Positions 11,282 to 37,054 of a DNA stretch of 64,000 nucleotides are shown here, in pieces. The translations under genes and the position numbers were made by a program. Position 1 is the first letter of the stretch, and every line of letters begins with the position of its first letter. This DNA comes from a virus. Under the pieces are notes generated by a model, which was not told the DNA's origin, did no database searches, and saw only the letters and a list, made by a program, of their open reading frames with translations. The stretch lies in the IMG/VR virus record IMGVR_UViG_3300045988_111426. One strand, 5' to 3'.

Positions 11282-12778
11282 TTAATGTCCGAAGTTATCT
11301 TTTAATATCTGCTTTAAGTGATTAATATCTGCTTTGATTTCTGCCTCTTTGTGTTTTGCTTCTACTCGTTTGTTGAACATGTTCGAGATCATGGTTCGAA
11401 TTGCGGAATCTCTGTTTTTTGAGTAAACTGCACCACTTGATGAATAACACATCGATTCGTCAAGTTCGTGCTGTTCACCCATCTTGTCCACGTAGGTTTT
11501 TCCCTTATCATCGGTATGACCGAGGTAAACATCTTCACCAACGTTCAACATCTGCATAATTGAGGGGAACAGTGATTCGTAGTCATAGATGACAATCCCA
11601 TCATAAACACCAATACCTGGTTGTAAGACGAATCCTGCACTGTAAGTTTCACCTTCGGGAATCTGCTTGTCATAATCCTTTACAAACACTTTGTTGTAAT
11701 GCTTGTAATAGTAGTCACACAAGAGTGTTTCAATCCCTACACTGACGAACATAGACTGTGCAACTTCGACACGTAGAAGATTTGCAAGAACGCTCATTGA
11801 TTCGAATGTTCTACACTTCTTATCGATCAATGCCACGAGGAACGTATCGATGATACCATAAAGCACGTAACGTTCATAGTCCTTCTCATAGAGTTCCATC
11901 AGAGTTTCGGAATGATGGATCTTCTTGACACCAAGGATCTCCGATGCGATAAAGTCGAGTGACATTGATGACTTCTGCTTAATCGATCTATCAAAGAACT
12001 CAAAGATTTGCATGTAGTCGATGATTGGTCGATGAAGAGGAAGTTCGATTTCAATCTTAGATGAATGATCAAACTTGTCTTTCGCAATCGTCGAGTAAAG
12101 CATTCTCTTCGGGGAGAGAATTGTAGGATCAATGTTCGTCTTCTTACATCTGTTGACGAGATATCTTGTATCGAACTTCAAGACGTTCCATCCGAAAATA
12201 CACGGCATCCGTGTTGCGTGATTCTCGACGAAGTCTTTGTTCATTGTGAACTCATCGGGGTAGTAAATGTAACGGAACTTATACCTCTGATGAAGTGTTT
12301 TATCGGTGATTTGTGAAAGATAGTCGTTGATCTTCTGTTCGATAGAGTCGATTTGTGTCTGTGAAAGTGGCTTGATCCCCATGACAGTACCATTCCCGAA
12401 TTCGTCACAATACTGATGCGTGAAGATTCTCCCTACAGGATTTCCAGCATCTGGGAAGTCATCAAAAACTTCCGTTTCGATATCCCAGAAGAACTTACGA
12501 GGTTGATTGTTTGAGAAAATCTTCGCTTGTAAACGTTCTGGTAGAGACAATAAGAACTCGATCTTGCGATATTTGTCGAGATAGGACTTACGTTCCTTTT
12601 TCACAGGGAATCCGTCTTGGGACACGTAAGTCTTATCTCGGAACTTATCATCTTCGGTTGTCTTTGTCCATACGTACTTTTCACGATCATCTATTGTTAT
12701 GTCAGATATCGCAATGTTTCCGTTTTCGTCGAAATAAGACACCGACATCTTGTCTCTGATCTGTTTACAATTGATCAT
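11282..12778 (-). CDS. family-B DNA polymerase, N-terminal half (3'-5' exonuclease plus motif A)
   Basis: ExoI 'FWDIETEV', ExoII 'FGWNVLKFDTRYL', ExoIII 'YGIIDTFLV', motif A 'YDYESLFPSIM'. The ORF stops before motif B. Confidence 0.85.
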   Translation of the reverse strand: MINCKQIRDKMSVSYFDENGNIAISDITIDDREKYVWTKTTEDDKFRDKTYVSQDGFPVKKERKSYLDKYRKIEFLLSLPERLQAKIFSNNQPRKFFWDIETEVFDDFPDAGNPVGRIFTHQYCDEFGNGTVMGIKPLSQTQIDSIEQKINDYLSQITDKTLHQRYKFRYIYYPDEFTMNKDFVENHATRMPCIFGWNVLKFDTRYLVNRCKKTNIDPTILSPKRMLYSTIAKDKFDHSSKIEIELPLHRPIIDYMQIFEFFDRSIKQKSSMSLDFIASEILGVKKIHHSETLMELYEKDYERYVLYGIIDTFLVALIDKKCRTFESMSVLANLLRVEVAQSMFVSVGIETLLCDYYYKHYNKVFVKDYDKQIPEGETYSAGFVLQPGIGVYDGIVIYDYESLFPSIMQMLNVGEDVYLGHTDDKGKTYVDKMGEQHELDESMCYSSSGAVYSKNRDSAIRTMISNMFNKRVEAKHKEAEIKADINHLKQILKDNFGH

Positions 12779-12807
12779 TTTCTCCGTGTTGTTTTTTGTC
12801 CTCTTTC

Positions 12808-13458
12808 TTATCGTCTCCGTCTATACATTCGTTCTATGTTGTCTTGGTGGAACTTTGGAAGAGAATCAAAAAACGCTTCATGGTCTGTTATCTTAAAGTA
12901 TTCGCAATAGATGCAAAAATAGAGCTTATGATCGAAATCGAAATCTATCATTTTCCGATAGACGACATCATAAAGATCAGAACGGTCATTCTTAAAGAAC
13001 GAGTTCATCAGCTTTTCGTATGGCTTCAGATGACTCTTATCTTCACGAGAGAAAGTACAATAATCGTCAGATACAACAACATCACCATTATGAAGTACAA
13101 AGTTTATCATAAATGGTGATGTTTTATCGAGATGACAAACGTTGTCGCCACATCTCACATGATTCATATCGAACGATCGTACGTACGAGAATCGCTTATG
13201 CTTGTTGATGATCGACTGCAATGATGAATAGAACTTTTCACAGAAGTTCTGTCTTGTTCTATATTCATCGGGGTTATAAATGTCATCAAGGAATTGATCT
13301 TGATAATCTTGATCAGCAGAGAAAGAAGTACCACAAGAGTTCTCCTTGTACATGTTACCACCAGTCTTCGACTGCGGTATGAAGAGCACATCCTCCTCCT
13401 GCTGTTCATCTTCTATCTTCGCCTTCGATGAGACATTGTTAGTAGTTGTTTTGTCCAT
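12808..13458 (-). CDS. hypothetical Cys/His-rich protein
   Basis: Start trimmed to the ATG at 13458 (MDKTTTNN), because the longer ORF overlaps the TerL nuclease ORF. Contains 'HVRCGDNVCHLDK' and 'YFCIYCEYF'. Confidence 0.45.
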   Translation of the reverse strand: MDKTTTNNVSSKAKIEDEQQEEDVLFIPQSKTGGNMYKENSCGTSFSADQDYQDQFLDDIYNPDEYRTRQNFCEKFYSSLQSIINKHKRFSYVRSFDMNHVRCGDNVCHLDKTSPFMINFVLHNGDVVVSDDYCTFSREDKSHLKPYEKLMNSFFKNDRSDLYDVVYRKMIDFDFDHKLYFCIYCEYFKITDHEAFFDSLPKFHQDNIERMYRRRR

Positions 13459-13462
13459 ATGT

Positions 13463-14281
13463 TTAATCGTAATAGTCTGATATGTCGAGTTCGTCATTTC
13501 TTTCGGCTTGTTTCCCGAGCTTCTTGTCGACCAGTTTCCAAAACTCGCTTGTGCAATTTTCACTGACAATCTCCACGAGTTCTGACCATTCTTCGATATC
13601 TCGAATGTTTACAACGTTTACACACGTCATAACACAATCGTCATGCCCCGAGCTTGCACGATATGAAGACGATTTTTCTGATCGTGCAAATGTCATAGCT
13701 TCTTGAATAGTCATAAACTCAGTAAGAACAAGCTGATTGTTCTTGAGCTGATCAGAGAATATCTTACAAGAATGTTGCTTTCGGGGTTCTGTTTGATATA
13801 TCCCAACTCTGAAAGTTCGGGCATTATCATCTCGGGCATTATAGAGAAACTTGCAGAATATGACATCTTCGTCGAGTTCATTCTGTTCTCCATAAATGTT
13901 CATTAGTGTGTTTCGGAAGTAGTTCCCTTCAAAGTTGTTCTCGATAACGATCTTCAAATTATCCTGCACCATGTAACCGTTTATGAAATGATACAGCCAA
14001 TTTGCACATTCTGGTGTTTCTACCATGTTCGATCTAAACATGGCGACTTGTACCAACTTGAAGAATGATTCTTCGTCGTTGAAGATCTTCACACCTTCAA
14101 TTTCTAAAGGTGTCATCGGTAGGACTTGGAAGAAGTTGATAATCGTGTAGTCACCACCTTTTCCCTCTGCAATGTCTATCGATAGAACGAATGCGTTGCG
14201 TTCATCTTTAAACCATTGAAGTTCGAATGATGGGTGAATGAAAAAGTACTGGTCGTATTCAAGGAGAACATCTTCAACCAT
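13463..14281 (-). CDS. terL: terminase large subunit, C-terminal nuclease domain (separate ORF)
   Basis: 'VLSIDIAEGKGGDYTIINFFQV' parallels T4 gp17 '[21 protein letters not shown]'. 'SSGHDDCVMTCVN' parallels 'EGYHDDLVMSLV'. Confidence 0.75.
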   Translation of the reverse strand: MVEDVLLEYDQYFFIHPSFELQWFKDERNAFVLSIDIAEGKGGDYTIINFFQVLPMTPLEIEGVKIFNDEESFFKLVQVAMFRSNMVETPECANWLYHFINGYMVQDNLKIVIENNFEGNYFRNTLMNIYGEQNELDEDVIFCKFLYNARDDNARTFRVGIYQTEPRKQHSCKIFSDQLKNNQLVLTEFMTIQEAMTFARSEKSSSYRASSGHDDCVMTCVNVVNIRDIEEWSELVEIVSENCTSEFWKLVDKKLGKQAERNDELDISDYYD

Positions 14282-14338
14282 TCTTCTGCCGTCTATCTTT
14301 TAATTTTTATAAATTAAAAACCTCTACAATTTTCATCA

Positions 14339-15475
14339 CTATAAAGACCCATCTTGGGAGAACACACCATTTACGAACTTCTTCTGATATTTCCCGAGCT
14401 TCTTGAGGACAGCCGTTGAAAGTAGAAGTGTCGATCCGCTCATAAACGAGTTACCATACTCTTGGTTAAAGTCGGCTTCAGAACCAAGGTCGGCAATCTG
14501 ATCAAGTCTCCATTGTTCGTCTCTGCCTTCGACCTCCCACCAGTCTATTCTTATTGGGTTGAAGTTGTTCTTACCATCGAGTGCATCTTGATAAAGCTGA
14601 TAGAACTTGTTCATACCTCTTGCCGTGCTGGTGATGATCATCTTCGACTTCTTACTTGCAGAAAGTGTAGGATAAACTACACGGAAGAACTCGTTGATGA
14701 TGTTTGGTTCAATAAGTGCAAACTCGTCAGCATAAAGGAGGTCGGCAGTTTCACCTGCACCAGAGTTCTCCGTGGCAGTTTCACCGATCAGTTTACAACC
14801 GTTGTCCCATTTCTTCTTGGATACGTTATCGACTTCAATCCCGAGCTTCATATAGAACGGAAGATGCATGAAGATCGAGTTTATCTTGTCAACAAGCTCA
14901 TCAACCTTGTCTGCGTTAGCACTAGTACAAAGAACAGTCTTGTCGTAGTTAGTCAAGATATACCATGCAATGAAAATGCCCGACATTACAGAGTTGTGAG
15001 AAAGTATGCCGTCAGAGAAATATGATAAAGTCTCATCCACGACAGACAGGTCGAACACGATCTGCTGATGAGACTTCTTGAGTGAAGAGACTTTCCGTGC
15101 ACCATCCATTGTCATTAAGATATCACCTAAAGAGAGATCTCGGACTTTCGTAGGTTGATAGCTTTCAAGTGAACTCTTGGAAGAATAGATGAGGTGATTA
15201 ACAGATCCACTGACTGAGTATTCACCTGCACCAACCTCCACGATGTCATGTACGGCTTTCAAATGAACAGAAGAAAGTGGCTTCCAACCGTTTATAGTGA
15301 GTGTTTCGTGGTTATCAAGTACAACTGAATCGATTATTCCGTCATCGTTTATTGGAAATCTCCAAAGTTTGTATCGTATTATTGTGAGGAAGATTATCAG
15401 TTTGTCGAGGATGTATTGCATGAAGTCTTTGAAAAATACAGATGAATGAGGATGCACTTGTTCGTACACCCTCAT
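14339..15475 (-). CDS. terL: Hint/intein domain fused to the terminase ATPase domain, which lacks Walker A
   Basis: Intein blocks 'SGSVNHLIY' (B) and 'VFDLSVVDETLSYFSDGILSHN|S' (F/G). The following 'SVMSGIFIAWYIL...LLYADEFALIEP...MIITSTARGMNKFY' is colinear with gp17 'TTVVAIFLAHFV...MIYIDECAFIPN...IIITTTPNGLNHFY'. No 'RQxGK' P-loop precedes it. Confidence 0.8.
   Translation of the reverse strand: MRVYEQVHPHSSVFFKDFMQYILDKLIIFLTIIRYKLWRFPINDDGIIDSVVLDNHETLTINGWKPLSSVHLKAVHDIVEVGAGEYSVSGSVNHLIYSSKSSLESYQPTKVRDLSLGDILMTMDGARKVSSLKKSHQQIVFDLSVVDETLSYFSDGILSHNSVMSGIFIAWYILTNYDKTVLCTSANADKVDELVDKINSIFMHLPFYMKLGIEVDNVSKKKWDNGCKLIGETATENSGAGETADLLYADEFALIEPNIINEFFRVVYPTLSASKKSKMIITSTARGMNKFYQLYQDALDGKNNFNPIRIDWWEVEGRDEQWRLDQIADLGSEADFNQEYGNSFMSGSTLLLSTAVLKKLGKYQKKFVNGVFSQDGSL
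14993..15328 (-). mobile_element. mini-intein / Hint module (aa ~50-161) at the TerL P-loop site
   Basis: C-terminal 'SHN' followed by a +1 Ser. No endonuclease domain. The N-terminal boundary is uncertain (possible block A 'SVVLDNHETLTINGWKPL'). Confidence 0.6.
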
Positions 15476-15499
15476 TCATCTTATAAATTGTTACCTATC

Positions 15500-16327
15500 T
15501 TATTTTTTGTTGATATCGAACTTTTCAGCGATAACAACGCACGTGGTTCTTAGCGTTTTATTCTCGACGATTAGGAACTTTGTATCTCTGCCCATTGCTT
15601 TCACGAACGCACAATCATAGACGTTTGTCGAGGAAAGATGCTTGAAGAGAATAGCAGGGAAGACAAAATCACCTGTGAATGAACCGTCTGTTGGAATATC
15701 AATGTTCCAACGATCTTCATATGACATAATCGTTGTCTGACCATCTTCAAACTTCACTCTAAACTTCGAGATCTCCTTGACCTTTGCCGATGCCTGTGAT
15801 TCAGAAGCGTACTTCATCAGTTTCTTCACGTCCGTCACGTCATTCTGAGAAAGACCAAAGAATGACAAGCGTTCTGTGCTTTGGAGCAGATTTTCCCAGA
15901 TGTCCTTCTGAAGATACGGAACAAGAGAAATGTCCGCCATTGGCATTCTTGAAGATTTTCTCTTGGATTTCACTTCAAGTTTCACCACAACAAGCGATTC
16001 TCCCTTTTCGTCACACGAAAGATTAATCGAGACCTGCTCATCATCCGTGTAGATTTTCAGAAGTTCGACAAACTTCTTGATTTCGATGAACGGAATCTTG
16101 ATGTGGCTATATTCCGACTTTGAGACAATCTCTTGGCACATGACATCGAAGTCTGATTCTACGACTTTCACGAAGTCACGTGTGATTGTATGACCACGAG
16201 AGACGATCTCATGCTTCCCATCTTCTGTTTTGTAGATATCAATCACCTGCTTCGACTTTATGTCGATGTCGTTGAAGAAGCTGATAAATGCTTCTATGTT
16301 GATGTTCCGAATTGTTACAATGATCAT
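15500..16327 (-). CDS. hypothetical protein (possible sliding-clamp-like)
   Basis: 275 aa within a replication/packaging context. Assignment rests only on size and a two-lobed pattern by eye. Confidence 0.25.
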   Translation of the reverse strand: MIIVTIRNINIEAFISFFNDIDIKSKQVIDIYKTEDGKHEIVSRGHTITRDFVKVVESDFDVMCQEIVSKSEYSHIKIPFIEIKKFVELLKIYTDDEQVSINLSCDEKGESLVVVKLEVKSKRKSSRMPMADISLVPYLQKDIWENLLQSTERLSFFGLSQNDVTDVKKLMKYASESQASAKVKEISKFRVKFEDGQTTIMSYEDRWNIDIPTDGSFTGDFVFPAILFKHLSSTNVYDCAFVKAMGRDTKFLIVENKTLRTTCVVIAEKFDINKK

Positions 16328-16329
16328 GG

Positions 16330-16785
16330 CTACTTTCCTATGTGTTGAGATTGATGATGATGGCTGATGTGGCTGATGTTGATATCGATCGATACGTCTT
16401 GCTTTATCTTCATCAAGAATTGTTCTATTCTCTTTTTTTCTTCTGCCTTATTACGTGTACCGAAGTTGTAATTCTTACCACGACCTTCGGGATATCTTTC
16501 ACGGATCTTGATGAGATTTGCTTCCATGACATCATCAATCGTGACACCAAGGAAATGACAAATGTTCATGAAGTAGAACAGAACATCACCGAGTTCGTCT
16601 ACGAGATCAACCTTCGAGATCTCCTTAGAATGGAACACTGCCTTCTTGACTATATCAGCAAATTCACCAGATTCTGACATAAGTGCCATTGTCATGTGAA
16701 TGAAGTCGAGAACCTTGTTGTTTGTAGGATTCTCGTTGAAGCAAGAAACGACAAATTGCTCGTATTCTTTTACTTTTTCATCCAT
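16330..16785 (-). CDS. mazG: MazG-like nucleoside triphosphate pyrophosphohydrolase
   Basis: 'MALMSESGEFADIVKK...LVDELGDVLFYFMNICHFLGVTIDDVMEANLIKIRERY' fits the all-alpha NTP-PPase pattern. The track start at 16800 is TTG; an ATG lies at 16785. His-rich tail. Confidence 0.75.
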   Translation of the reverse strand: MDEKVKEYEQFVVSCFNENPTNNKVLDFIHMTMALMSESGEFADIVKKAVFHSKEISKVDLVDELGDVLFYFMNICHFLGVTIDDVMEANLIKIRERYPEGRGKNYNFGTRNKAEEKKRIEQFLMKIKQDVSIDINISHISHHHQSQHIGK

Positions 16786-16832
16786 TTTTATTGTTATCAA
16801 TATGACTGATTTGTGGTATTCTTATATATGAC

Positions 16833-16865
16833 GAGGTCGCCATATCTTCTCGACATAGCGACCTC
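16833..16865 (-). terminator. 8-bp GC-rich hairpin
   Basis: gaggtcgc / gcgacctc, between 16907..17434 and mazG. Confidence 0.4.
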
Positions 16866-16906
16866 AAACTAATCAATCAAATCAATCAACAAAACCGACG
16901 AGATTT

Positions 16907-17434
16907 TTACTTCTTCGTCGATTTGCGTGCGGTAGTCTTCTTTTCCTTTGGTTCTTCTACCTTTTCTTCAGCCTTTTCTTCTACTTCCTTTGTGTCTTCG
17001 GTCTTTTCTTCCTTAGAATCGTCTTCAGCCTTTTCCGTAGTTTCTTCTGCGGTTTCCGTAGTTTCTTCTACCTTTTCCGTTTCGGTTTCGGTCTGTTCTT
17101 CTTCAATGTCTTCACCTTCCACCTTTATGGCGTGGAGCTGATGACCACCGAGGATACGGTTATACTTCAGTTCGAACGAATAACCATCAATAACTACAGA
17201 CGGACACAGAGCCATGAAGAGATTCGTCTGTGATTCCGTGACGAAGAGATGATTAAGAGATGAGAATGTCTTACCATCAAGCCACTTAGGGCTTTCAAGT
17301 TCACTCGTTATAAACTCTGCAACACCATCGGTGTTGAATTCACCATTGACAGGTGTAAACCAAAAGCCGTTAGATTCGATGCTTCTATCATCGATCTTTG
17401 ACTTCGTGATCTTGATATTACTAAGTTCAAACAT
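16907..17434 (-). CDS. hypothetical protein with E/T/K-rich low-complexity tail
   Basis: 175 aa with tail 'EEEQTETETEKVEETTETAEETTEKAEDDSKEEK...'. Late-promoter-like motif at 17460-17474 upstream. Confidence 0.5.
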   Translation of the reverse strand: MFELSNIKITKSKIDDRSIESNGFWFTPVNGEFNTDGVAEFITSELESPKWLDGKTFSSLNHLFVTESQTNLFMALCPSVVIDGYSFELKYNRILGGHQLHAIKVEGEDIEEEQTETETEKVEETTETAEETTEKAEDDSKEEKTEDTKEVEEKAEEKVEEPKEKKTTARKSTKK

Positions 17435-17459
17435 GTTTCGTTTCTTTTTTGATCAAAAA

Positions 17460-17474
17460 TTCTCATTATTTAAA
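17460..17474 (-). promoter_or_regulatory. late-promoter-like motif variant (TTTAAATAATGAGAA)
   Basis: 26 nt upstream of the ATG at 17434. Confidence 0.35.
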
Positions 17475-17512
17475 AGTATAAGAAGAAAAACCAATCAGAA
17501 AGATCAATCGAT

Positions 17513-17983
17513 ATGGAAGAGAATAATAGCAAAGCGTGGGATATTTACAGCACGTTAGAAGTTGATGAAAACGGAATACCAATCACGACACCTTCTGAGA
17601 GTGTTAGAGAGGTTATCAATGAAGAACCTCGTCAGACGATAATGCTTCATAGAAACGAGATCGAAGAAGAAGATAACAGTCAGAAGATCGTATATGAAAG
17701 TGGTGACGAATCTCACGCCATCAAGCTCCCTCCAAGGAAACTGAACCTTCCGAATGAGGTCATAGGAATAGTCAAGAATGGTGTAAAGTCCACCATTTCT
17801 TTCAACATTATGGTTGAAATCGACATGATACCCGAGAGCATCATCGACTTTTTATCAGAGTCTTACAACATACCGAAAGAAGATGTCGTGAAAGACATCG
17901 TTGAACTTTCTTTTGATGAAGATGATGCAAAAAAGATCCTCTCCGAAGGAATAATAAAGGAACTCTGGAAAGAAGAAAAATAA
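17513..17983 (+). CDS. hypothetical acidic protein (plus strand)
   Basis: 156-aa ORF filling the gap between two minus-strand genes. No minus-strand alternative exists. Confidence 0.45.
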   Translation: MEENNSKAWDIYSTLEVDENGIPITTPSESVREVINEEPRQTIMLHRNEIEEEDNSQKIVYESGDESHAIKLPPRKLNLPNEVIGIVKNGVKSTISFNIMVEIDMIPESIIDFLSESYNIPKEDVVKDIVELSFDEDDAKKILSEGIIKELWKEEK

Positions 17984-17986
17984 CGG

Positions 17987-18622
17987 CTACGATTTGATAG
18001 CCATTGAACGGATAGTTTTTCTTATCATCTCCGTTCTTGATTGTGTCGAAGAGAGGTCACCAGAACATCTCTTCGACACAACGTTTGTACCAAACACGAT
18101 CTCACCATCCTTTTCTTCTGTCTGTGGCTGTGTAGTCATGTTCGTTGTTCTGATTGGTGTTGTGGATTCCGAAACCATCTGAGGATTGGACTGTCGTATA
18201 AGTTCCATTATCCTCTTCTTATCCTTCTCTGCAACACTTCGATTGAGTTCTCGTTGAGATTCGTTCTCTTTAGGAGAAGATGAAGCCGACTTCTTTATAG
18301 CTTCGACTGCTGTTTGTCTGTTCGGTGTTATGAACGTGAAAGTCCCATCCATTGAATAAGGATTCGAGACGTGGTTGTAATGCATCAAGATATCGGCATC
18401 GTCTTCTGATCCCATAAGAATTCTCGAGACAAGATGAGGTCTACCGCTCAAATCTTCAGAAATCGTCGATATCTGTAAAGTGTAGTCCATAGGAACAGTC
18501 TTTGAAAACGATTCAGAACAAAGATCGATGATTTCTTCATCATCAATCCTTATCGTCTGCTTTGCTTCCAATGACTGGTAAGATATCGGCTTTAGTGAAG
18601 GTATTACGAGCTGGTAGTCCAT
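17987..18622 (-). CDS. hypothetical protein (LysM / tail-protein-X-like motif by eye)
   Basis: Start trimmed to the ATG at 18622, because the 18-bp hairpin 18633-18683 lies inside the longer ORF. 'HLVSRILMGSEDDADILMHYNHVSNPYSMDGTFTFITP'. Confidence 0.4.
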   Translation of the reverse strand: MDYQLVIPSLKPISYQSLEAKQTIRIDDEEIIDLCSESFSKTVPMDYTLQISTISEDLSGRPHLVSRILMGSEDDADILMHYNHVSNPYSMDGTFTFITPNRQTAVEAIKKSASSSPKENESQRELNRSVAEKDKKRIMELIRQSNPQMVSESTTPIRTTNMTTQPQTEEKDGEIVFGTNVVSKRCSGDLSSTQSRTEMIRKTIRSMAIKS

Positions 18623-18632
18623 ATACAAAAAT

Positions 18633-18683
18633 CGGTGAAGTCCTTTTGTTATGTAACTACCTACCAACAAAAGGACTTCACCG
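18633..18683 (-). terminator. perfect 18-bp hairpin after purB
   Basis: cggtgaagtccttttgtt / aacaaaaggacttcaccg with a 15-nt loop. Confidence 0.65.
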
Positions 18684-18701
18684 ACGAGTTTTCGTTTTTC
18701 T

Positions 18702-19973: not shown

Positions 19974-20052
19974 TTTGATTGATTGATTGGGGTGAAAATA
20001 TTCGTCGATATTCCAGAGCACAAGGAAAGTACCTTCCTTAAGCTCGGAGAGC

Positions 20053-20836: not shown

Positions 20837-20880
20837 AATGAAGATTTTCGAAATGGTATGGGCTTGTGTTTTTTATTAAT

Positions 20881-20889
20881 CTTATAACA
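20881..20889 (-). promoter_or_regulatory. extended -10-like element (minus strand TGTTATAAG)
   Basis: Immediately downstream of hairpin 20892-20933 and about 45 nt upstream of the ATG at 20836. Confidence 0.3.
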
Positions 20890-20891
20890 AG

Positions 20892-20933: not shown

Positions 20934-20958
20934 TATCGAATTGTTCTTGAAGAAGAGG

Positions 20959-28040: not shown

Positions 28041-28910
28041 TTATGGAGCGTACATCAGAGGATGACGAGAATAGAAGTTGACATCTGCTATAATATCACC
28101 ACGTTTCAGAGAAAGGGACTTCTTTCCGATTAGTGTCATATAAACGATGAAATCATCATCAACAATGTCCCACCCTGCAATCATCAGTCCATTGTTCATA
28201 AACATAGACGGAACGACATCTACACTTACAAGCGTTCCCAAAGGTAACTCATAAACACGAAGATCAGTCCTTACAGCGATTCTATCATTCGCCACTATCT
28301 TCACTGTATCATCTCCAAGAATCGCAGGTGGATTTTTACCGACGTATTCAAGAACATCAACGAATCTGGCCACCAAGAGTTCTTCACTTTTGCGGTTCAT
28401 GACCACCACATCTCCCAAACGATCATAGACTTCGTGAACAATCGGTTGATAGTTCTTCTCATAGAAACCGATCTGATTTCGATGAACGAGTGTGAAAGCC
28501 GTCAAGAGATCATAAGGGAAGACTGTGTCGTATTCGTGACAGTCATCTGGGACTTTCGTGAGGTGGATTTGCGACACGTATCTTCTGAAGAGATTCCACA
28601 TTTCTGCACCACCAATCACGAACACATCCTTCTGACGATTTTCGGAAGATTCACAGAAAGCTTTGAGCATTTCCATCGATTTGAAAACGTGAACACCTTC
28701 GATAGAAATGTCGTCTCGTGATAGGACAATGTTTAGTCTTCCTTCAAGTGGCTTTCCGATCTCTTCATATGTCTTCCTGCCCATGATGACAATGTTTCCC
28801 ATCGTCATTTCACGGAACAGATTCATATCTTCTCGGATTCTGAACAGAAGTTTGCCGTCGTTTCCAACAGCGAAGTTCTTATCAACACTGGCTATGAACT
28901 TTACTTTCAT
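28041..28910 (-). CDS. dihydrofolate reductase fused to a dUTPase-like beta-barrel domain
   Basis: The N-terminal half carries 'GNDGKLLFRIREDMNLFREMTMGNIVIMGRKTYEEIGKPLEGRLNIVLSR' and 'VFVIGGAEMW' (DHFR). The C-terminal half carries 'AVRTDLRVYELPLGT..VVPSMFMNNGLMIAGWDIVDDDFIVYMTLIGKKSLSLKRGDIIADVNF' (dUTPase motifs 1-4 pattern, no motif 5). Confidence 0.7.
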   Translation of the reverse strand: MKVKFIASVDKNFAVGNDGKLLFRIREDMNLFREMTMGNIVIMGRKTYEEIGKPLEGRLNIVLSRDDISIEGVHVFKSMEMLKAFCESSENRQKDVFVIGGAEMWNLFRRYVSQIHLTKVPDDCHEYDTVFPYDLLTAFTLVHRNQIGFYEKNYQPIVHEVYDRLGDVVVMNRKSEELLVARFVDVLEYVGKNPPAILGDDTVKIVANDRIAVRTDLRVYELPLGTLVSVDVVPSMFMNNGLMIAGWDIVDDDFIVYMTLIGKKSLSLKRGDIIADVNFYSRHPLMYAP

Positions 28911-28926: not shown

Positions 28927-29982
28927 TTAAAAGCCATCACAGCAACATTCCGACATGTCACCACCATCGTTGCCAATACAACGTTCGTCTTTTAGTGATC
29001 GACGACGATCTTCTTTGCTTTCGTAGTTGTCCCAACCATCGACTTTTTCACATGGGAATTCCTTATGTGCCACTTTCAAGAACTCGTGTTCACCTCTAAT
29101 AGCCAACACAGCAATCGTCTGATCTTTGTGTATAGTGACAGGTTTCGATCCCATGTTTACAAGACCAACACAGACAACACCATCAGTAATACTCGATGAT
29201 TCCACCGAGATTCCGTTATAGACAAAGTAGTGTAAGATTGTCTTGATATCGACATAAACGTTCTTGGGGATTCTGTAAATCTCGATATCGGTCTTCATGA
29301 AAACTCTGTCACCTTTGTGTAAAACTATGGAATCCCGATGATCAGACTTTCTTCTTACAGTTTCACCAAAGCCGTTGACGTGAACTCTTGGTTCTCGTGC
29401 ACAAACACCATAACAACCAAAACCATCGACACTTGCTGTACACATGAAGACGTTGTCTTTGAACTCGTAATCGGTGACTTTCACGAAGTCATTGAGATGG
29501 TGTTCCCAGACAACGTTCGAAGACCGACGAATATCGAGGATCATCTTCTGAGGGATGTCGGAGAGTTCGTATCTATCGTGAGATTCTGATCCACTCACTT
29601 CCACCATCTTGATTCTGTCGACATGACCTACAAAGCTTCTTGCGATGTGGATGTTGTCGACCATTACGTAAACATCACGATATATGTCAAACTTCGTACC
29701 GAGCATGTCGATGAAATCTCGTATAGATTCTGCACGAACAAACCCTTCACGATTGAAGTTCTTGTTCTGGGTGATGACAACATTTATGCGGTTTGGAAGC
29801 GGTGATATGAGAGTGGAACATGTGTCCTCATCAAAGACTATGATGTTTCCAGTGGTGATCTTTCCGATATAGTCTCGAAGATCCGTGTTGGAGGGTGAAG
29901 ATAGCAGTTTCTGGGCGTTGATTGTCCTCGCTTTGTCGTTGACAAATAGGATCATTTCGATTTCGGTCTTGTTCTTCTTCAT
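28927..29982 (-). CDS. degenerate DHFR-like::dUTPase-like fusion paralogue with Cys-rich tail
   Basis: 'GNIIVFDEDT..PNRINVVITQ' (decayed DHFR pattern), then 'GDRVFMKTDIEIYRIP...SSSITDGVVCVGLVNMGSKPVTIHKDQTIAVLAI'. Tail 'MSECCCDGF'. Confidence 0.5.
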   Translation of the reverse strand: MKKNKTEIEMILFVNDKARTINAQKLLSSPSNTDLRDYIGKITTGNIIVFDEDTCSTLISPLPNRINVVITQNKNFNREGFVRAESIRDFIDMLGTKFDIYRDVYVMVDNIHIARSFVGHVDRIKMVEVSGSESHDRYELSDIPQKMILDIRRSSNVVWEHHLNDFVKVTDYEFKDNVFMCTASVDGFGCYGVCAREPRVHVNGFGETVRRKSDHRDSIVLHKGDRVFMKTDIEIYRIPKNVYVDIKTILHYFVYNGISVESSSITDGVVCVGLVNMGSKPVTIHKDQTIAVLAIRGEHEFLKVAHKEFPCEKVDGWDNYESKEDRRRSLKDERCIGNDGGDMSECCCDGF

Positions 29983-31011: not shown

Positions 31012-31797
31012 TTAAACACTCACATCCGCCTTGATCGTAGGATGATGAACGTAGTTCTTGATTACGATTTGATCGATGAGATTTGCGGAGATATTGTCAA
31101 TGTCGATATCTCCCACGATTTCTATCTCTGGGAGTTCGTATGGTTTTCGGGATAGTTGGAGCTTTACTTGATCCAAGTGATTCTTGTAGATGTGAAGATC
31201 TCCAAACGAATGGATAAATCGATGAGGTTTCTTGTCACAGATCTTTGCAACAATGTAAAGCAGAAGTGAGTATTGAGCAAGATTGAATGGAACACCCAAG
31301 AAGAGATCGGCAGATCTTTGATAAAGCTTTAATGAAAGCCTGTCACCTTCGACATAGAACTGGAAGAAACAATGACAAGGAGGAAGTGCCATTTCCGAGA
31401 GTTCTTGAGGATTCCAAGCCGAGACGATTATTCTTCGTGAATCTGGATTGTTCCGAATTTGGTCGATTGCTTCTCGAATCTGATCAACCCCTCCGAAATC
31501 TCTCCATTGCTTTCCATAGATCTTTCCAAGGTCTCCGTTTTCATCTGCCCATTCATCCCAGATCGTCACACCATTGTCTCGGAGGAACTTCACGTTTGTA
31601 TCACCACGGAGCATCCAAGCAAGTTCGAATATGACACTTCTCATATGGATTCTCTTCGTGGTGAGGATTGGGAATTTTTCACTTACGTCATATTCCACTT
31701 GATGACCAAACACAGAGATTGTTCCAGTTCCAGTTCTGTCCGTTCTTTCTGTCCCGTTTTCGAGAACGTACTTGAGCAAATCGAGATAAGTCTGCAT
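31012..31797 (-). CDS. thyA: thymidylate synthase
   Basis: 'DRTGTGT', '[14 protein letters not shown]', '[19 protein letters not shown]' (Asn retained), and canonical C-terminus '[11 protein letters not shown]'. Confidence 0.9.
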
Positions 31798-31843
31798 TGT
31801 CTTTGATTGTTATTGATGTTGATGATGATTGTTCGTATACGTT

Positions 31844-31879
31844 AAGACCTCACCTTTCTTATATCAAAGGTGAGGTCTT
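31844..31879 (-). terminator. perfect 14-bp hairpin
   Basis: aagacctcaccttt / aaaggtgaggtctt with an 8-nt loop. Confidence 0.6.
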
Positions 31880-31907
31880 GGGCACAAACTAAAATAAAGA
31901 ATAGCAA

Positions 31908-33311
31908 CTATCTACTTCTCTTTTTCTTATAGTCTTCGATGAGCTTTGTCACGTAGGATTCAGCGTCGAATTCTCCCGAAAGCATTGATAGAATCTGAGG
32001 TGAATAACCACTGACGAAGACGTTTCCATCTTTGCTAACAGTTGGTAGTGTGACATTGTCCACTGAGAGATTCCACCAGATCATCTTCACACCCTTCTGA
32101 TTGAGAGTATCAAGATGCGTCGCATTTCTATCATAGGAATCGTCGAACTGCATATCACTAAGAACAAGGACATATTCGGGCAGATCTTCCGTTATGTTGT
32201 TCAGATTTCGAAGAACTGCTTCGAAATTCGTGCAAGTACAGTCACCGAACGATTCGAGGATCGCCATATCACGAACATAGGAGAAATCCTCATCTTTTGT
32301 CAATTTCATGATCCGAGAATCGTCCGAGAAGACGATGAAGTGATTACGGAGATAATCAGAATGGTGTGAAACATAGTGACCAATTGAACGTGCCTTACCA
32401 ATTGAATCGAATCTGTCGAACATTGATCCAGAGCCGTCAATGATTGGGATGATCTTCCCAAAGTTCATAGATCCCAGAGCCTTGAAAGCTTCTGTATAGA
32501 ACGTGTCATGTTCCATCCCCTTCTCACTGGGATTTATCTTTCCGTCATATGCCGTGTAACGATAATCAAAGCCATTGAATGCAGTGTTTCGATATGACCT
32601 TAGTAAGTCGTATGGCGTGGAAACGGACTGATTCATCTTGGTTTTCCCAGATTTTAGTTCCTCGAGATACTTCTTGAAGTTTTCATCCTTGAAGAATTCC
32701 TTCTTATGTCGAAGCATAGAAAGTGAAGGAACATGTGAGTAATCATCTGGGAATTCTCCACGTGATCTCACAGATTCGACAGTCATAGGGGATGCGCACC
32801 ATCCACGATAGATTGTCTTCGAAATCTTCTGTCTTCGAAGTTCGTTTCTGATGATCTTGAACTTCTTGGATCTCTCACGAGGAAGCCACTTTTTCAGAAG
32901 TTCGTAATTACCACGGATAGAATCGTTGTCCATGGCTTCCTTGATGTACCCCACGACCTCCTTGGGGGTGTGAGTGTACAAGATATCATCAGCACGACCA
33001 ACCTCGATCACATCATCGATCGAAATGTTCTGAATTTTCAAGAGAACACGACCGATTTCTCTTTCACCAATCCCCATACGAGGATCTCTGATATACATTG
33101 AGAAGAAGCGGTTGAACTCACTCTTTTCAAGGAACTCGGGATAATCGACAATGATCAGTTTCTCTACTTCTGCAAGTCCCTTGTACTTTGCGATTTCACG
33201 GATCTTTTGAAGTCTGAACAAGAAATCGACATAAGGATTTCCGATGTATCTCTTATAGGCTCTGTCACCATTCGTCGTTCTCGTCTCGTTGAATGCATCG
33301 AAGATGTTCAT
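31908..33311 (-). CDS. DUF2828-like protein with vWA (MIDAS) domain
   Basis: 'TTNGDRAY..GNPYVDFLF' (as in DUF2828 'TENG...SGNPCLDFFF', recalled), MIDAS 'IIDGSGSM', and 'VLVLSDMQFDD'. Start trimmed to the ATG at 33311. Confidence 0.55.
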   Translation of the reverse strand: MNIFDAFNETRTTNGDRAYKRYIGNPYVDFLFRLQKIREIAKYKGLAEVEKLIIVDYPEFLEKSEFNRFFSMYIRDPRMGIGEREIGRVLLKIQNISIDDVIEVGRADDILYTHTPKEVVGYIKEAMDNDSIRGNYELLKKWLPRERSKKFKIIRNELRRQKISKTIYRGWCASPMTVESVRSRGEFPDDYSHVPSLSMLRHKKEFFKDENFKKYLEELKSGKTKMNQSVSTPYDLLRSYRNTAFNGFDYRYTAYDGKINPSEKGMEHDTFYTEAFKALGSMNFGKIIPIIDGSGSMFDRFDSIGKARSIGHYVSHHSDYLRNHFIVFSDDSRIMKLTKDEDFSYVRDMAILESFGDCTCTNFEAVLRNLNNITEDLPEYVLVLSDMQFDDSYDRNATHLDTLNQKGVKMIWWNLSVDNVTLPTVSKDGNVFVSGYSPQILSMLSGEFDAESYVTKLIEDYKKKRSR

Positions 33312-33385
33312 AATCGTTTGATTGAGATTGATCTTTATTTGTTGTTTGTGATTGTTTGTGATTGATTGCTTAGCGATTAATGTTT

Positions 33386-33416
33386 CGGTCATCTTATCTT
33401 TACGACAAGATGACCG
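33386..33416 (-). terminator. 10-bp hairpin inside the discarded N-terminal ORF extension
   Basis: cggtcatctt / aagatgaccg. Confidence 0.4.
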
Positions 33417-33442
33417 TTTCTTCTTTTGTTTTCCCTTCTTCT

Positions 33443-33775
33443 TTAAGCTATGATCTGATCTTCCAAGGTGTCAATGAGTTGTAGCATTTCCCTGTAATGA
33501 TCGATGTTTTTAAGGTTCATTGGATCTTCTTCTACAATTTCCAAAAGATCTCCGAATCTGTCATCAATCGCAATGTCGACGTTTTCACCGTCTTCCATGT
33601 CGTTGTAGATGTAAGTTGGCAGTTCCTTTAGTCTGTTATAGATTTCGATTATCAGTTCGAATTCCTCATCGGTCTTCTTCTTTGAGAAGTAAGACATTGG
33701 AATCTTGTTTTGGATCTTGAACATTCTCTTGACGTAATCTTTCACAGAGAAGTAGTCATCCAGCAGTGTAGTCAT
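33443..33775 (-). CDS. hypothetical acidic protein
   Basis: 110-aa ORF. Confidence 0.5.
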   Translation of the reverse strand: MTTLLDDYFSVKDYVKRMFKIQNKIPMSYFSKKKTDEEFELIIEIYNRLKELPTYIYNDMEDGENVDIAIDDRFGDLLEIVEEDPMNLKNIDHYREMLQLIDTLEDQIIA

Positions 33776-33789
33776 ATTTTCACCGAGTT

Positions 33790-34413
33790 CTAAATTAAAA
33801 AATCCTTGCTTGAAAGAATAGTTGAAGTCGACACCTCAACCTCCTCTTTTATATTCCCATCGACAAGCATGTTTTTGATGCAAGCATAGTCAAGTTCAAT
33901 GACAATGTTTCTACCTTCGGAGACCATTTCCACATTCTTCCCATAGTGATAATGGAGCTTGGATGATGAACAACTGTCTGTTTCGTCCTTGTATTCCACC
34001 AAGAGGTAATGTTTTGAAGGAATGGCTTTGAGAATGACTGATTCTTGGAATTTCCAATAAGAATCGTCTATGATGTCCGTCTTCTTAATCATTTCAAGAG
34101 AAATGATCTCATCGATTATCATTTTTTCAAACACTTCCTCCGAAATGTCTACTCTGTCGAGGATCTTCTGTGATCTGAAGATGTCACGATTTTTATCATC
34201 GTAGACCACTCTTCCAAGTGTCCTTGAGAAGACGAAGTTCCCATCAAGATAATCTTCTAAAAGCAGACAGAACTTGCCGTCCAGAGAGTACCTTTTCTCG
34301 TTGAACTTTTTACCATCAAAGACAACAACGTAGTACTGACCATCTTTCAAAACAGCATAGGTTCTTATGGTCTTGTTATCGTGTCTAAGTTTTATAAGTA
34401 CTAGTTTGGGCAT
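33790..34413 (-). CDS. hypothetical protein, paralogue A
   Basis: 207 aa. 'ISEEVFEKMIIDEIISLEMIKKTDIIDDSYWKFQESVIL' aligns with the neighbouring gene. Confidence 0.55.
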   Translation of the reverse strand: MPKLVLIKLRHDNKTIRTYAVLKDGQYYVVVFDGKKFNEKRYSLDGKFCLLLEDYLDGNFVFSRTLGRVVYDDKNRDIFRSQKILDRVDISEEVFEKMIIDEIISLEMIKKTDIIDDSYWKFQESVILKAIPSKHYLLVEYKDETDSCSSSKLHYHYGKNVEMVSEGRNIVIELDYACIKNMLVDGNIKEEVEVSTSTILSSKDFLI

Positions 34414-34424
34414 GGTCGATTCGG

Positions 34425-35039
34425 TTACTTAAAGTTGAGGTATTCGTTATTGTAAATGCTGGAAACTGTCATCTTTGTACTTTCGACAAGAAGACCATTC
34501 ACGAGGATCTTCAAATCTTTGCCATGTCTGTCGATAACGATGATGTCGTCGGAATACTTGAAAATCTGTGGTGTTCTACAGTTTTCAAAGTTTACGAAAC
34601 CTTCGGAAATCCGCTTTCCATTTTCATCAAAACTGGTAACTGATAGATTCTCACCAATCCCCGAAGTGACAAGTATCTCATCTTCAAACTTCCAAAGGTC
34701 AGAATAAGGAATTGTCTCAGTGACGTAAATCTCCAGAAGTGTGAAGAGCGAGCCATCGATCAGCTCGTCAAATGTTTCTTCCGAAAAGCTCAATCTGTAA
34801 AGAAATCTATCAGATGTCTTTGTTCCGTCTCTCCTCTCTATGAGAAGTTTGATCATTGGAACGACAACTGCGCTTCCTCCGATATATTCGATAGTCCCAG
34901 CACATGAAAGGAACTTCTTCTTGTCGATCTGGGGCTGATAGTCGTTGAATCTGTCCATGTCGATACGGACTGTGAAGAATCTCTCTCCGATCTTCGCCAC
35001 GTATGACTTCAAACTTTGAAGGTAGACGATTTTTACCAT
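34425..35039 (-). CDS. hypothetical protein, paralogue B
   Basis: 204 aa. 'FSEETFDELIDGSLFTLLEIYVTETIPYSDLWKFEDEILV'. Confidence 0.55.
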   Translation of the reverse strand: MVKIVYLQSLKSYVAKIGERFFTVRIDMDRFNDYQPQIDKKKFLSCAGTIEYIGGSAVVVPMIKLLIERRDGTKTSDRFLYRLSFSEETFDELIDGSLFTLLEIYVTETIPYSDLWKFEDEILVTSGIGENLSVTSFDENGKRISEGFVNFENCRTPQIFKYSDDIIVIDRHGKDLKILVNGLLVESTKMTVSSIYNNEYLNFK

Positions 35040-35845
35040 AATGTTTCTTCTTTCTGAGATTTGTGGAAGAACCTTTCATACAGGTTCGGATTCTCCCAGT
35101 CTCTTATAACAGATGACATGCAGAGATTTTTGATGTTGTGATAAATTGATAGGTTCTCTTTGTCAAGTGTATCGTTGTCGATTATCGATTGCATCCACTC
35201 TTCACGAAAAACCCATGGAAATCTTTTCCCATTCTGATAGTAGATTTGGTCTTGACCAAGCGAGGAACATGAAATGTACTCAATTCCCGAGAAATCGGTC
35301 TTGTGGTGAAATCCGAGAAGTGGTTCAATTTCTAACCACAATCTTGTGTTGGGAGAAATCTTCAAAGATGCTCGCAGAAGATCCACTCTATGACGAAAGC
35401 CATCATTTTCCACAGATGTTCCAATTATGACGTTATCTGGGAGCGGTTTCTGATAATAGTCTCTGAGGAACTTGTAATAACGCCCAGCATTCTTCGATAA
35501 TAGAAAGAAAACGTGTTGTGGGAAATCTCCGAAAGTGTCAAACACACAAGCAATGTCCTTGTCTTCGATCGACGGACTTAAAAAGTCACCCATTATCGAA
35601 CCGATGTAGATTTCAGAGACTTCTGATGGACTTATGAAATCTCGGAGGTGCTTTGTGTTTATCTTTGGTTGTAGGAAAAACTGATCCGCATAACCTCTGG
35701 CAGGGAACATCTTATAACGAACATAGCAATATGGACAAGACGACTTTTCCGTGGGGACGATGATCGAATCGTCAAATGGGTCTCCACAAGTCCCTTCCTT
35801 CTTCCCAAAGACATCACATCCGTAGACAAAGTTCAAAGTTCTCAT
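35033..35845 (-). CDS. DUF5131 (phage Gp37/Gp68) family protein
   Basis: 'CPYCY', 'IYIGSIMGDFLSPSIEDKDIACVF..FPQHVFFLLSKNAGRY' and 'NVIIGTSVEN...RLWLEIEPLLG' follow the family pattern 'GC.NCYA / IFV.SMSDLFH / H.FQ.LTKRP / NVWLGVSVEN / EPLLG'. Confidence 0.6.
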   Translation of the reverse strand: MRTLNFVYGCDVFGKKEGTCGDPFDDSIIVPTEKSSCPYCYVRYKMFPARGYADQFFLQPKINTKHLRDFISPSEVSEIYIGSIMGDFLSPSIEDKDIACVFDTFGDFPQHVFFLLSKNAGRYYKFLRDYYQKPLPDNVIIGTSVENDGFRHRVDLLRASLKISPNTRLWLEIEPLLGFHHKTDFSGIEYISCSSLGQDQIYYQNGKRFPWVFREEWMQSIIDNDTLDKENLSIYHNIKNLCMSSVIRDWENPNLYERFFHKSQKEETLW

Positions 35846-35851
35846 TCCTCT

Positions 35852-37054
35852 TTACCAAAGTGGATCGAAAGCGATCAATGAAACAGGCAATGCTTGTACA
35901 CCAATCGAAGTGATTATCTTGTTAAGTGGTGAAAGATAAAGCATTTCGAACTGCTTGGAATAATCGATTGGATAAAGGAACTCATAACAAGGGTCTCCGT
36001 TGACAAATGCGAAGACATCACTTCGGGGATCTGTTGAATAGTAGTATTGAATCTTCATCCCCGATCTGATCTGTTGATATTTGTGTTTATACTTCGACTT
36101 TGTAAGTTCGGCATTATAAACACTCGAAGCTCTGATCTGAATTGTTACCCCCTTGACGTATTCGAAGACACCATCTTTTGCAGTTATCACATATTTCTCA
36201 TAACCATTAACTCTCTGAGAGATTGCAACATCTTCCACGTTTGCACTTTCAAATTTTGATTTTTGCATTTTGACGTGGTCGATGAAATCTCGAAGATTCA
36301 GTTCTCGGTGTTGCAAGATATAGTGAACTGTCTCACGGAGAAGTTCTCGGACAAACTTTGGTGTCGATGACTTGTTAATATCGAGACCTTTGACTTCTAC
36401 GTTTTCAAGTGGCTTGAAATAAACGCCTTCTTCCCAAGAGATATTCTTGATGTACTTCTTCTTCGATGTCCACAAGACGTTGTGGCAGATCATCTCAAAA
36501 GCAAGCTTCATTGAACGTTGTCCATCAATCTTCTGCTGGAATCCGTTGAACTTGCGGATATAACCAACGAGCATATCTTTGACACAATCATTCAGATCGT
36601 TTTCACCAATATCAAAGACGAATTCTTCAAGAGTTCCCTTGTAATCGGTCTTGTCCATGATGTCCTTGTAACGGATAAACACGGAATCTGTGTCGGCATA
36701 GTTCACCGCATTGAAATCGATCGGATCACACTTTGTAATCCCCATCTTTGCATGCAGTTCCCGATGATTTGGGAATCTCTGTTGGAAATACCTATTGAAG
36801 AAGAGAATGGTGTAACGGATCACATGAGAAGATTGCTCAGACACGGATCTTGCAATTTCTCTATCGTAGAGGATAAATGAATGATAACCAAGAACACCAT
36901 AGATTGAGTTGAGAGCAACTTTCGAGACTTTGTTAATTGTTGACTGATAACTTGCTTCTCTCTCAAGTCTGGATATTTCCATCAGAATCTCCTCTTCTGT
37001 GACATTCTGTCCTTTCTTCAAGGATGAGTGGTTAAGTTCTATCTCAAGGATCAT
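35852..37054 (-). CDS. family-B DNA polymerase, C-terminal half (motifs B and C, KKKY, thumb)
   Basis: Motif B 'KVALNSIYGVLG', motif C 'YADTDSVFI', and 'TSKKKYIKN'. Begins with its own ATG. Confidence 0.85.
   Translation of the reverse strand: MILEIELNHSSLKKGQNVTEEEILMEISRLEREASYQSTINKVSKVALNSIYGVLGYHSFILYDREIARSVSEQSSHVIRYTILFFNRYFQQRFPNHRELHAKMGITKCDPIDFNAVNYADTDSVFIRYKDIMDKTDYKGTLEEFVFDIGENDLNDCVKDMLVGYIRKFNGFQQKIDGQRSMKLAFEMICHNVLWTSKKKYIKNISWEEGVYFKPLENVEVKGLDINKSSTPKFVRELLRETVHYILQHRELNLRDFIDHVKMQKSKFESANVEDVAISQRVNGYEKYVITAKDGVFEYVKGVTIQIRASSVYNAELTKSKYKHKYQQIRSGMKIQYYYSTDPRSDVFAFVNGDPCYEFLYPIDYSKQFEMLYLSPLNKIITSIGVQALPVSLIAFDPLW

Follow-up and report, generated by a model that had tools for sequence, protein, structure and literature searches.

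A T4-type DNA polymerase encoded by two distant genes and cut at the tip of its fingers domain in a large phage

Analysis of a 64-kb window of the viral record IMGVR_UViG_3300045988_111426, whose genome is about 150 kb long, revealed that a large phage encodes a T4-type replicative DNA polymerase as two separate genes, cut at the tip of the fingers domain. The window here means this whole 64-kb stretch. The two open reading frames (ORFs), termed the N-half and the C-half of this family-B DNA polymerase (PolB), are listed in Table 1 with the other features discussed below. We consider it likely, with a probability of roughly 85%, that they are the subunits of one obligate two-subunit replicative PolB of the T4/RB69 type, seamlessly cut at the fingertip. 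The association of the halves, their activity and their co-expression are what we infer from the evidence that follows.

Two genes for one polymerase fold

The N-half comprises the N-terminal domain, the 3'-5' exonuclease, the initial portion of the palm and finger helix one, and the protein ends four residues past this helix. The exonuclease motifs are Exo I (DIET, residue 99), Exo II (NVLKFD, residue 198) and Exo III (YGIIDT, residue 307). They are followed by motif A (DYESLFPS, residue 399, with the aspartate Asp399) and by the finger motif FNKRVEAK (residue 468), which supplies the triphosphate-binding Arg471 and Lys475. The C-half consists of the second finger helix, the remaining palm, the KKKY motif, the thumb and a hydrophobic C-terminal tail, LIAFDPLW. 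Its motifs are motif B (KVALNSIYG, residue 45), motif C (YADTDS, residue 119) and KKKY (residue 198). Together, the halves contain the full set of motifs of an RB69/T4-like PolB, namely Exo I to III, motifs A, B and C, and KKxY. The Pfam profiles were divided between the two proteins. The N-half matched DNA_pol_B_exo1 (E 1.2e-4, just under the gathering score) and positions 26-142 of DNA_pol_B, and the C-half matched DNA_pol_B from profile position 156 onward, the DNA_pol_B match being above the cutoff on both halves. The C-terminal LIAFDPLW presumably resembles the clamp-binding tail of T4-type polymerases, and we regard it as a candidate clamp-binding peptide.

Both genes lie on the minus strand with about 30 ORFs between them, and the C-half is transcriptionally upstream. 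A six-frame scan of the window for a second polB copy found a single motif A, a single motif B and a single motif C. When the contiguous PolB of Flavobacterium phage MaF61 was used as the query, matches in the window were found only at the N-half and the C-half. Stop-codon recoding, which occurs in the related Lak megaphages, was ruled out by the 91% coding density of the window under the standard genetic code and by the TAA ends of both halves. The original prediction, made from the letters of the window, had described an N-half with Exo I to III and motif A and a C-half with its own ATG, motifs B and C, and KKKY. Its coordinates and motifs stood as described. The split between motifs A and B was borne out by the motif positions, the Pfam profile halves and the RB69 alignment, and the spacing of about 23 kb on the minus strand, with the C-half upstream, proved to be a gap filled with ordinary phage genes.

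Table 1. Positions of the polymerase halves and of associated features in the window and in related phages
Sequence	Feature	Position	Strand	Remarks
Window	PolB N-half	11282-12778	-	498 aa; ATG start, TAA stop; TAA 7 nt before the groES-like gene
Window	PolB C-half	35852-37054	-	400 aa; own ATG, TAA stop; TAA 6 nt before the DUF5131 gene
Window	First finger helix	11297-11404	-	N-half residues 459-494, from the AF2 model with alignment; RB69 alignment reaches residue 486
Window	Second finger helix, bearing motif B	36890-36997	-	C-half residues 20-55, equal to 518-553 of the concatenated model
Window	Intervening ordinary phage genes	12779-35851		23,073 nt; not a mobile insertion
Window	GroES-like (11017-11274) and GroEL-like (9418-11007) genes	9418-11274	-	Directly downstream of the N-half
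Window	Repeat-rich non-coding region	37055-38481		1.4 kb; directly upstream of the C-half, between divergent gene blocks
Phage PAU	gp105 (N-half), gp110 (C-half)			Colinear, 2.4 kb apart, four genes between
LR756500	N-half; C-half	~262.5 kb; ~248.8 kb	-; -	13 kb apart
LR756500	Three-gene polB region	4784-5725, 5718-7421, 7414-8184, 16546-18489, 18486-19904		Positions within L012 (LR756500.1 244000-268000)
LR745206	N-half; C-half	232.8 kb; 130.6 kb	+; -	About 100 kb, opposite strands
LR756502	N-half; C-half	253.9 kb; 120.5 kb	+; -	About 130 kb, opposite strands
LR756501/503	N-half; C-half	90 kb; 710 kb	-; +	Opposite strands
LR756504	N-half; C-half	256 kb; 538 kb	+; -	About 280 kb, opposite strands
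167-kb metagenomic relative	N-half; C-half	17.7 kb; about 143 kb	+; -	Opposite strands

The break falls at the fingertip and separates the two long finger helices. In phmmer searches against PDB sequences, the N-half aligned with RB69 gp43 through residue 486, with 23 further residues after the aligned part, and residue 21 of the C-half paired with RB69 residue 539. In RB69 coordinates the two sides of the break are at about 509 and 519. An alignment to RB69 gp43 had been suggested as a check in the original prediction, and this is where it put the break. We then counted the tail, defined as the residues after the motif A Asp to the end of the N-half, and the head, defined as the residues ahead of the motif B Lys. 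The tail and head lengths were 99/44 in the window, 101/46 in the 43A/43B proteins of Aeromonas phage 44RR, 99/47 in phage PAU, 102/40 in LR756504 and 96/44 in the 167-kb metagenomic relative. The total from motif A to motif B was 141-149 residues in the split enzymes, with 144 in the window, and about 149 in contiguous RB69 (D411 to K560). This agreement indicated that nothing was inserted or lost at the break.

The concatenated halves were modelled with AlphaFold2 (AF2). A single-sequence run was unusable, with a predicted local distance difference test score (pLDDT) of 31.6, and was replaced by a run with a 53-sequence alignment, which reached a pLDDT of 91.4 and a predicted TM-score (pTM) of 0.81. 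In this model, a helix at residues 459-494 was followed by the junction between residues 498 and 499, a short tip, and a second helix at 518-553. Foldseek comparison of the full-length model with RB69 and T4 gp43 gave TM-scores of 0.72-0.80 (E about 1e-47). As modelled, the concatenated halves are a complete RB69-like fold with the N-terminal and exonuclease domains as well as the palm, the fingers and the thumb.

The ratio of nonsynonymous to synonymous substitutions (dN/dS) was measured against relatives about 99% identical in protein and about 94% identical in DNA; the N-half gave 0.023 at a dS of 0.32, and the C-half gave 0.022 at a dS of 0.34. Both halves are functional genes under equally strong purifying selection. 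The identities of the N-half and the C-half to their homologs also ran in parallel, at 48% and 43% for the 167-kb relative, 28% and 28% for LR756504, and 32% and 33% for MaF61.

The split among relatives and in known polymerases

An exhaustive search of 1.84 billion cluster representatives (50% identity) was performed, and the best 150 yielded 141 near-full-length proteins. Stand-alone N-halves made up about 79% of these representatives (112 of 141), and 26-27 were contiguous proteins longer than 740 aa. The stand-alone N-halves stopped 81-125 residues past motif A, with a median of 97 and a value of 99 in the window. In a database clustered at 90%, the N-half homologs ranged in identity from 99% to about 29%, and all of them were about 455-570 aa long; the C-half homologs were about 375-440 aa long. 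At the nucleotide level, window positions 9000-33000 had no megablast match in the phage collection. The fingertip split is a property of the whole clade, and the survey of relatives proposed in the original prediction found it also in phage PAU and the LR genomes. A rough neighbour-joining tree mixed the split and contiguous states, requiring at least 19 changes by parsimony, a number that is indicative only because the tree carries no support values.

Among complete genomes, PAU and the published huge phages LR756500-504 and LR745206 each gave a single match to the N-half query and a single match to the C-half query per record, and these queries detected no second polB-like locus. The halves in PAU and the LR genomes are homologous to those of the window and share an identical break point, but their spacing and orientation vary (Table 1). 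In PAU, the predicted sliding clamp gp109 lies between gp105 and gp110 (PMC4889955). The host of PAU is really Sphingobacterium, according to White and Suttle (2013) as cited in PMC10537231, so cultured members of the clade infect Bacteroidota. Flavobacterium phage MaF61 has a contiguous PolB of 994 aa beside chaperonin genes.

Only part of the split pattern is visible in two further phages. Chryseobacterium phage MA9V-1 lists two PolB ORFs, ORF135 and ORF138, 2.2 kb apart (PMC10537231); as in the window, these are two separate ORFs, and the likeness is one of matching sizes alone. In the Prevotella megaphage Lak-A1 (MK250016.1), the N-half (about 19940-21490 within L015, which is MK250016.1 182085-223554) ends at the fingertip with TAA and contains one in-frame TAG, consistent with TAG recoding. 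The Lak-A1 C-half was not found within 20 kb on either side of the N-half, nor at E <= 1e-31 in the 541-kb genome, and was possibly missed owing to recoding or extra breaks.

The fingertip break itself has been described in the T4-related gp43A/gp43B polymerases of Aeromonas phages 44RR, 25, 31 and 65 and Acinetobacter phage 133 (Petrov et al. 2006, 2010, as cited in PMC3061061 and PMC2988022). These resemble the window pair in having an RB69/T4-like PolB, a fingertip break, separate cistrons and no intein. The sizes are also close, with 498 aa for 43A and 391 aa for 43B of 44RR compared with 498 and 400 aa in the window. However, the gp43A and gp43B genes are colinear and 2 bp to 3 kb apart, whereas in the window the distance is 23,073 nt and the C-half is upstream. 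The window halves share 22-24% identity with 44RR 43A and 43B, so the fission was probably independent. In addition, the split is the majority state in the clade of the window, whereas the T4-related gp43A/gp43B form a small sub-family.

Distantly encoded halves are also known. In the chimallivirus PhiKZ, DNAP-N (gp82) and DNAP-C (gp50) are encoded by distant genes, with the break in a large palm-insertion domain (PMC13648687). As in the window, the N subunit bears motif A and the C subunit bears motif C. In PhiKZ, however, the fingers lie wholly on the C subunit because the break is in the palm insertion, whereas the window enzyme has no insertion domain and is broken at the fingertip. The PhiKZ enzyme further differs in its size (1369 aa), its divergent PolB clade and its partner, the RNase H-clamp (Rhc). 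The intein-less PolB of Methanothermobacter thermautotrophicus is likewise the product of two distant genes, which PMC3061061 places 85 kb apart (Kelman et al. 1999, as cited there and in PMC2677866), but it is archaeal and is broken within the palm, at a point about 83 residues C-terminal to the fingertip. An engineered Pfu PolB was split near the finger tip, like the window enzyme, and formed a 1:1 complex with wild-type kinetics (PMC3061061). In contrast to the window pair, it is an artificial, bicistronic construct in which the stop and start codons overlap, and its archaeal fingertip is very short.

These comparisons bear on the novelty of the arrangement. The original prediction was right that adjacent, colinear split PolB genes occur in T4-like Aeromonas phages, and it could attribute a distant, order-inverted split to no known example. 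The latter does not hold, since PhiKZ gp82/gp50 and M. thermautotrophicus are precedents, both with palm breaks. The order and spacing are as observed, but the break point is that of the known 43A/43B fingertip split and distant encoding is known too, so the claim of novelty was overstated. The inverted order carries little meaning where the two cistrons are independent and the phage genome may well be circularly permuted. Our literature search found no description of a fingertip break with dispersed halves in public genomes; this combination is already present in the public genomes LR756500-504 and LR745206. No new mechanism is revealed, as the break site, the heterodimer solution and the distant encoding all have precedents.

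Proposed assembly of the halves, alternative explanations and probable origin of the split

In the proposed mechanism, each half would be translated from its own cistron, and the halves would come together non-covalently, with contacts in the palm core and with the two finger helices packed antiparallel. The product would be a 1:1 heterodimer equivalent to single-chain gp43. Its polymerase active site would be composite, with the motif A Asp and the finger Arg and Lys provided by the N-half, and the motif B Lys and Asn, the motif C Asp and KKKY provided by the C-half. The exonuclease site is complete within the N-half. Because the polymerase site needs residues of both halves, neither half is expected to polymerise alone. 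Three precedents support assembly through the contacts of the single chain. The gp43A and gp43B proteins of phage 25 co-purify and are active (Petrov 2010, as cited in PMC2988022), the fingertip-split Pfu PolB is a stable, wild-type-like 1:1 complex (PMC3061061), and the N and C subunits of the PhiKZ polymerase form an active 1:1 complex with a cryo-EM structure (PMC13648687).

Several observations weigh against this reading. The AF2 chain was fused artificially, so that the model speaks for two halves compatible with one canonical PolB, not for their binding. The window covers 64 kb of a genome of about 150 kb, and a further polymerase elsewhere is possible. Sigma-70 promoter and terminator scans around both halves gave results at the level of shuffled sequence. 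For a Bacteroidota-type promoter pattern (TTTG N17-23 TANNTTTG), three matches were seen where 2.1 were expected, none of them near the halves. It is the shared strand and the DNA-metabolism neighbourhoods of the two genes that suggest their co-expression. With regard to origin, neither half has an endonuclease gene next to it in the window.

Partly independent roles of the halves would be an alternative, in which the N-half served as a free proofreading exonuclease or worked with another partner, or in which separate regulation timed the assembly. We regard such roles as improbable. The equal strength of selection, the parallel divergence and the presence of one of each half in the complete genomes checked all argue against them, as do a polymerase active site built from both halves and the stable 1:1 complexes formed by known split PolBs. 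The features in their favour are the exonuclease site, which is whole within the N-half, and the different gene neighbourhoods of the halves, of which that of the C-half changes among relatives while the linkage of the N-half to the chaperonin genes is constant.

It is very improbable that the pair is an assembly artefact or a decaying pseudogene pair with a functional polB elsewhere. Around the N-half, an independent ENA scaffold and a Logan contig aligned with window positions 4818-22756 and 9314-22756, respectively, as single high-scoring segment pairs with about 91% nucleotide identity. Around the C-half, another ENA contig was colinear with window positions 31775-47300 at about 88-90% identity. 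The colinear stretches of the independent assemblies thus extend over 18 kb at the N-half and 15 kb at the C-half, and the mis-assembly that the original prediction had named as its refutation was not seen. The longest contigs had the same sizes for the N-half and the C-half variants (151,174, 150,200, 150,445 and 145,663 bp), which suggests that the variants share these contigs of about 146-151 kb. The contigs with these variants come from human oral and other human-associated metagenomes, and one variant pair is present in NCBI under 'MAG TPA: Ackermannviridae sp.'. An artefact is also at odds with the same architecture in hundreds of lineages and in the cultured phage PAU, decay with the dN/dS of about 0.02 for both halves, and a functional polB elsewhere with the one N-half-like and one C-half-like place in each complete relative. 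What would fit an artefact is that only 64 kb of the genome is visible and that the exact N-half and C-half proteins of the window were without a match in the contig index.

Restoration of a contiguous polB by RNA trans-splicing, through halves of a group I or group II intron, or by programmed DNA rearrangement deserves scarcely any credence. Splicing has a basis in the group I introns that are common in essential genes of Bacteroidota jumbo phages and are confirmed by RNA reads (PMC12880540). Nevertheless, no Rfam family reached the gathering threshold anywhere in the 64-kb window, this being the scan that covered the 3' end region of the N-half, and a permissive scan of 36900-38600, upstream of the C-half, gave chance-level matches only. 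A tRNA scan of the window found none. The TAA of the N-half just before groES and the ATG of the C-half's own, both kept as ORF termini in more than 100 protein clusters, also argue against trans-splicing. The halves lie on opposite strands in several relatives, which argues against splicing and rearrangement alike. For rearrangement, recombination sites at the junctions were ruled out, as the junctions share only 8-12-nt matches at chance level.

Joining of the halves after translation by a split intein, as in Nanoarchaeum equitans PolB or in phage 'fractured genes', has the intein-like ends at motif C and the free-standing endonuclease-like ORF between them in the same gene of the relative LR756500 to recommend it, but it is effectively refuted by sequence, since the window junction offers no room or extra length (23 residues after the finger Lys, 44 ahead of the motif B Lys, and a motif A to B total of 144, about as in contiguous RB69), shows no HN[CST] and no block-B-like motif, is flanked by a tail and a head that are modelled as the finger helices themselves, and has equally short ends in all fingertip-split relatives. 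The absence of intein and intron signatures at the junctions, as originally predicted, was therefore upheld by the lack of intein motifs, of extra length and of Rfam matches at threshold.

For the two-subunit polymerase, a history in two steps can be proposed. Once the halves were two independent cistrons, adjacency would no longer have been needed, and rearrangement could have moved them apart, by 23 kb here and, in relatives, by anything from 2.4 kb to about 280 kb. The fission itself was probably caused by a homing endonuclease or another insertion that invaded the variable fingertip-coding segment, as judged from relatives. In LR756500 and Lak-A1, a large ORF with KIKxTNLERYGV repeats, similar to NUMOD-repeat endonucleases, lies directly after the N-half, and in LR756500 this ORF also has a Vsr-like endonuclease part ('IHIWEDDW'). 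In Lak-A1 the repeat takes the form KIKxTNxERYG. In Jug phages of Bacteroides, polymerase genes are reported to be split by endonuclease genes (PMC12880540).

The 462-kb phage LR756500 has its PolB in three genes, with the fingertip split and a second break at motif C. The ends at the motif C break look like those of a split intein, 'YIDTD/SIQK...DVTGDHSLIV' and '...DILVHN/SCYLAF', where the slash marks the break. LR756500 also has a pair of paralogous endonuclease-like ORFs (567 and 647 aa), of which one separates the C pieces and the other immediately follows the N-half. This arrangement is the 'fractured gene' layout of PMC2677866.

Gene neighbourhoods and implications

The interval between the halves contains a TerL ATPase ORF and a putative nuclease ORF, MazG, adenylosuccinate lyase, a PurZ/PurA-like ORF, an HU-like protein, ribonucleotide reductase, a methylase-like ORF, two DHFR-domain ORFs, ThyA, a DUF2828/DUF7788 protein and DUF5131. 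The neighbours of the N-half are groES/groEL, SSB and a primase-like gene, and those of the C-half are the 1.4-kb non-coding region and nucleotide-metabolism genes. The linkage of the N-half with groES/groEL persists in relatives down to 48% identity, including the 167-kb relative, in which the N-half is again followed by groES and groEL. Chaperonin genes also adjoin the contiguous polB of MaF61. The surroundings of the C-half vary among relatives, while the chaperonin linkage of the N-half stays.

In the non-coding region upstream of the C-half, a unit of about 136 nt occurs three times, with spacings of 251 and 215 nt, and every copy has a 27-nt hairpin arm (GGAAGGTACTTTCCTTGCACTC-like). A 30-nt AGTCTTT-rich repeat is present there at least seven times, along with an (AAAGAC)n run. 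The region had no Rfam match. A non-coding gap upstream of the C-half is also present in relatives. It is a probable site of the promoter or regulatory sequences for the transcription unit of the C-half, and an origin-like role is possible. About 98 nt at 44061-44158 matched, at 83% identity, a part of the repeat region that precedes the C-half in two relatives (L019 and L021), so that the repeat unit seems to be a dispersed intergenic element.

Two other gene pairs in the interval were noted. The terminase large subunit is apparently split into adjacent ORFs at 14339-15475 (minus strand, 378 aa) and 13463-14281 (minus strand, 272 aa). The 378-aa ORF has the ATPase domain only (Terminase_6N, residues 166-348; phrog_2). 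The 272-aa ORF matched a 'terminase' PHROG weakly (E 1.2e-5) and, from its sequence, may be the nuclease domain. The pair measures 378 and 272 aa in a 99% relative and 367 and 272 aa in an 87% relative. Two DHFR-domain ORFs, at 28041-28910 and 28927-29982 on the minus strand, adjoin each other beside ThyA (31012-31797). One match was strong (E 1e-36, 289 aa) and the other weak (E 2.7e-8, 351 aa), and both ORFs are longer than a plain DHFR.

A possible nucleotide pathway for 2-aminoadenine (Z-base) was also noted, consisting of a PurA-like ORF at 20959-22380 (minus strand, 473 aa) and its neighbours. The best structure matches of this ORF were PurZ of phiVC8 (6FM1/6FKO, E 6e-16) and of S-2L (7ODX, 2e-10), followed by archaeal PurA (1.6e-8), and its P-loop, GSSGKGK, is like the GSTGKG of phiVC8. 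Genes for adenylosuccinate lyase (18702-19973, minus strand), MazG (16330-16785, minus strand) and guanylate kinase (39056-39586, plus strand) are also present. No DatZ-like or DpoZ gene was seen in the window, where the split PolB is the only polymerase. MaF61 has the closest phage homolog of this PurZ-like ORF (39.7%), and the phiVC8-type PurZ phages come next. Since the PolB of MaF61 is contiguous, a tie between the PurZ-like pathway and the split state is weakened.

In this PolB clade of big and huge phages, the two-subunit fingertip-split enzyme is the prevailing state and, judging by the rough tree, a repeatedly generated one. A wider reading is that the split is more than tolerated and has been kept for its usefulness. 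We hold this to be unlikely. If the split were useful, the open fingertip could change nucleotide selectivity, in a phage that encodes a PurZ-like pathway; the engineered fingertip split of Pfu altered selectivity for a gamma-phosphate-modified deoxynucleoside triphosphate (PMC3061061). Alternatively, separately regulated halves could gate the assembly of the active replicase, and their dispersal would then reflect independent regulation.

For annotation, the split means that a 'DNA polymerase' of about 500 or 400 aa in this clade is not a truncated gene or an assembly error. Polymerase phylogenies and completeness checks must pair the halves, wherever in the genome they are located. For enzymology, the clade provides many natural pairs in which the assembly and nucleotide selectivity of a fingertip-split replicase can be studied. 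For evolution, it offers a clear natural gene fission followed by loss of linkage, in many independent or long-lived cases at one structural hot spot, and relatives with an endonuclease-like ORF at the break or an extra intein-like break at motif C are candidate intermediates.

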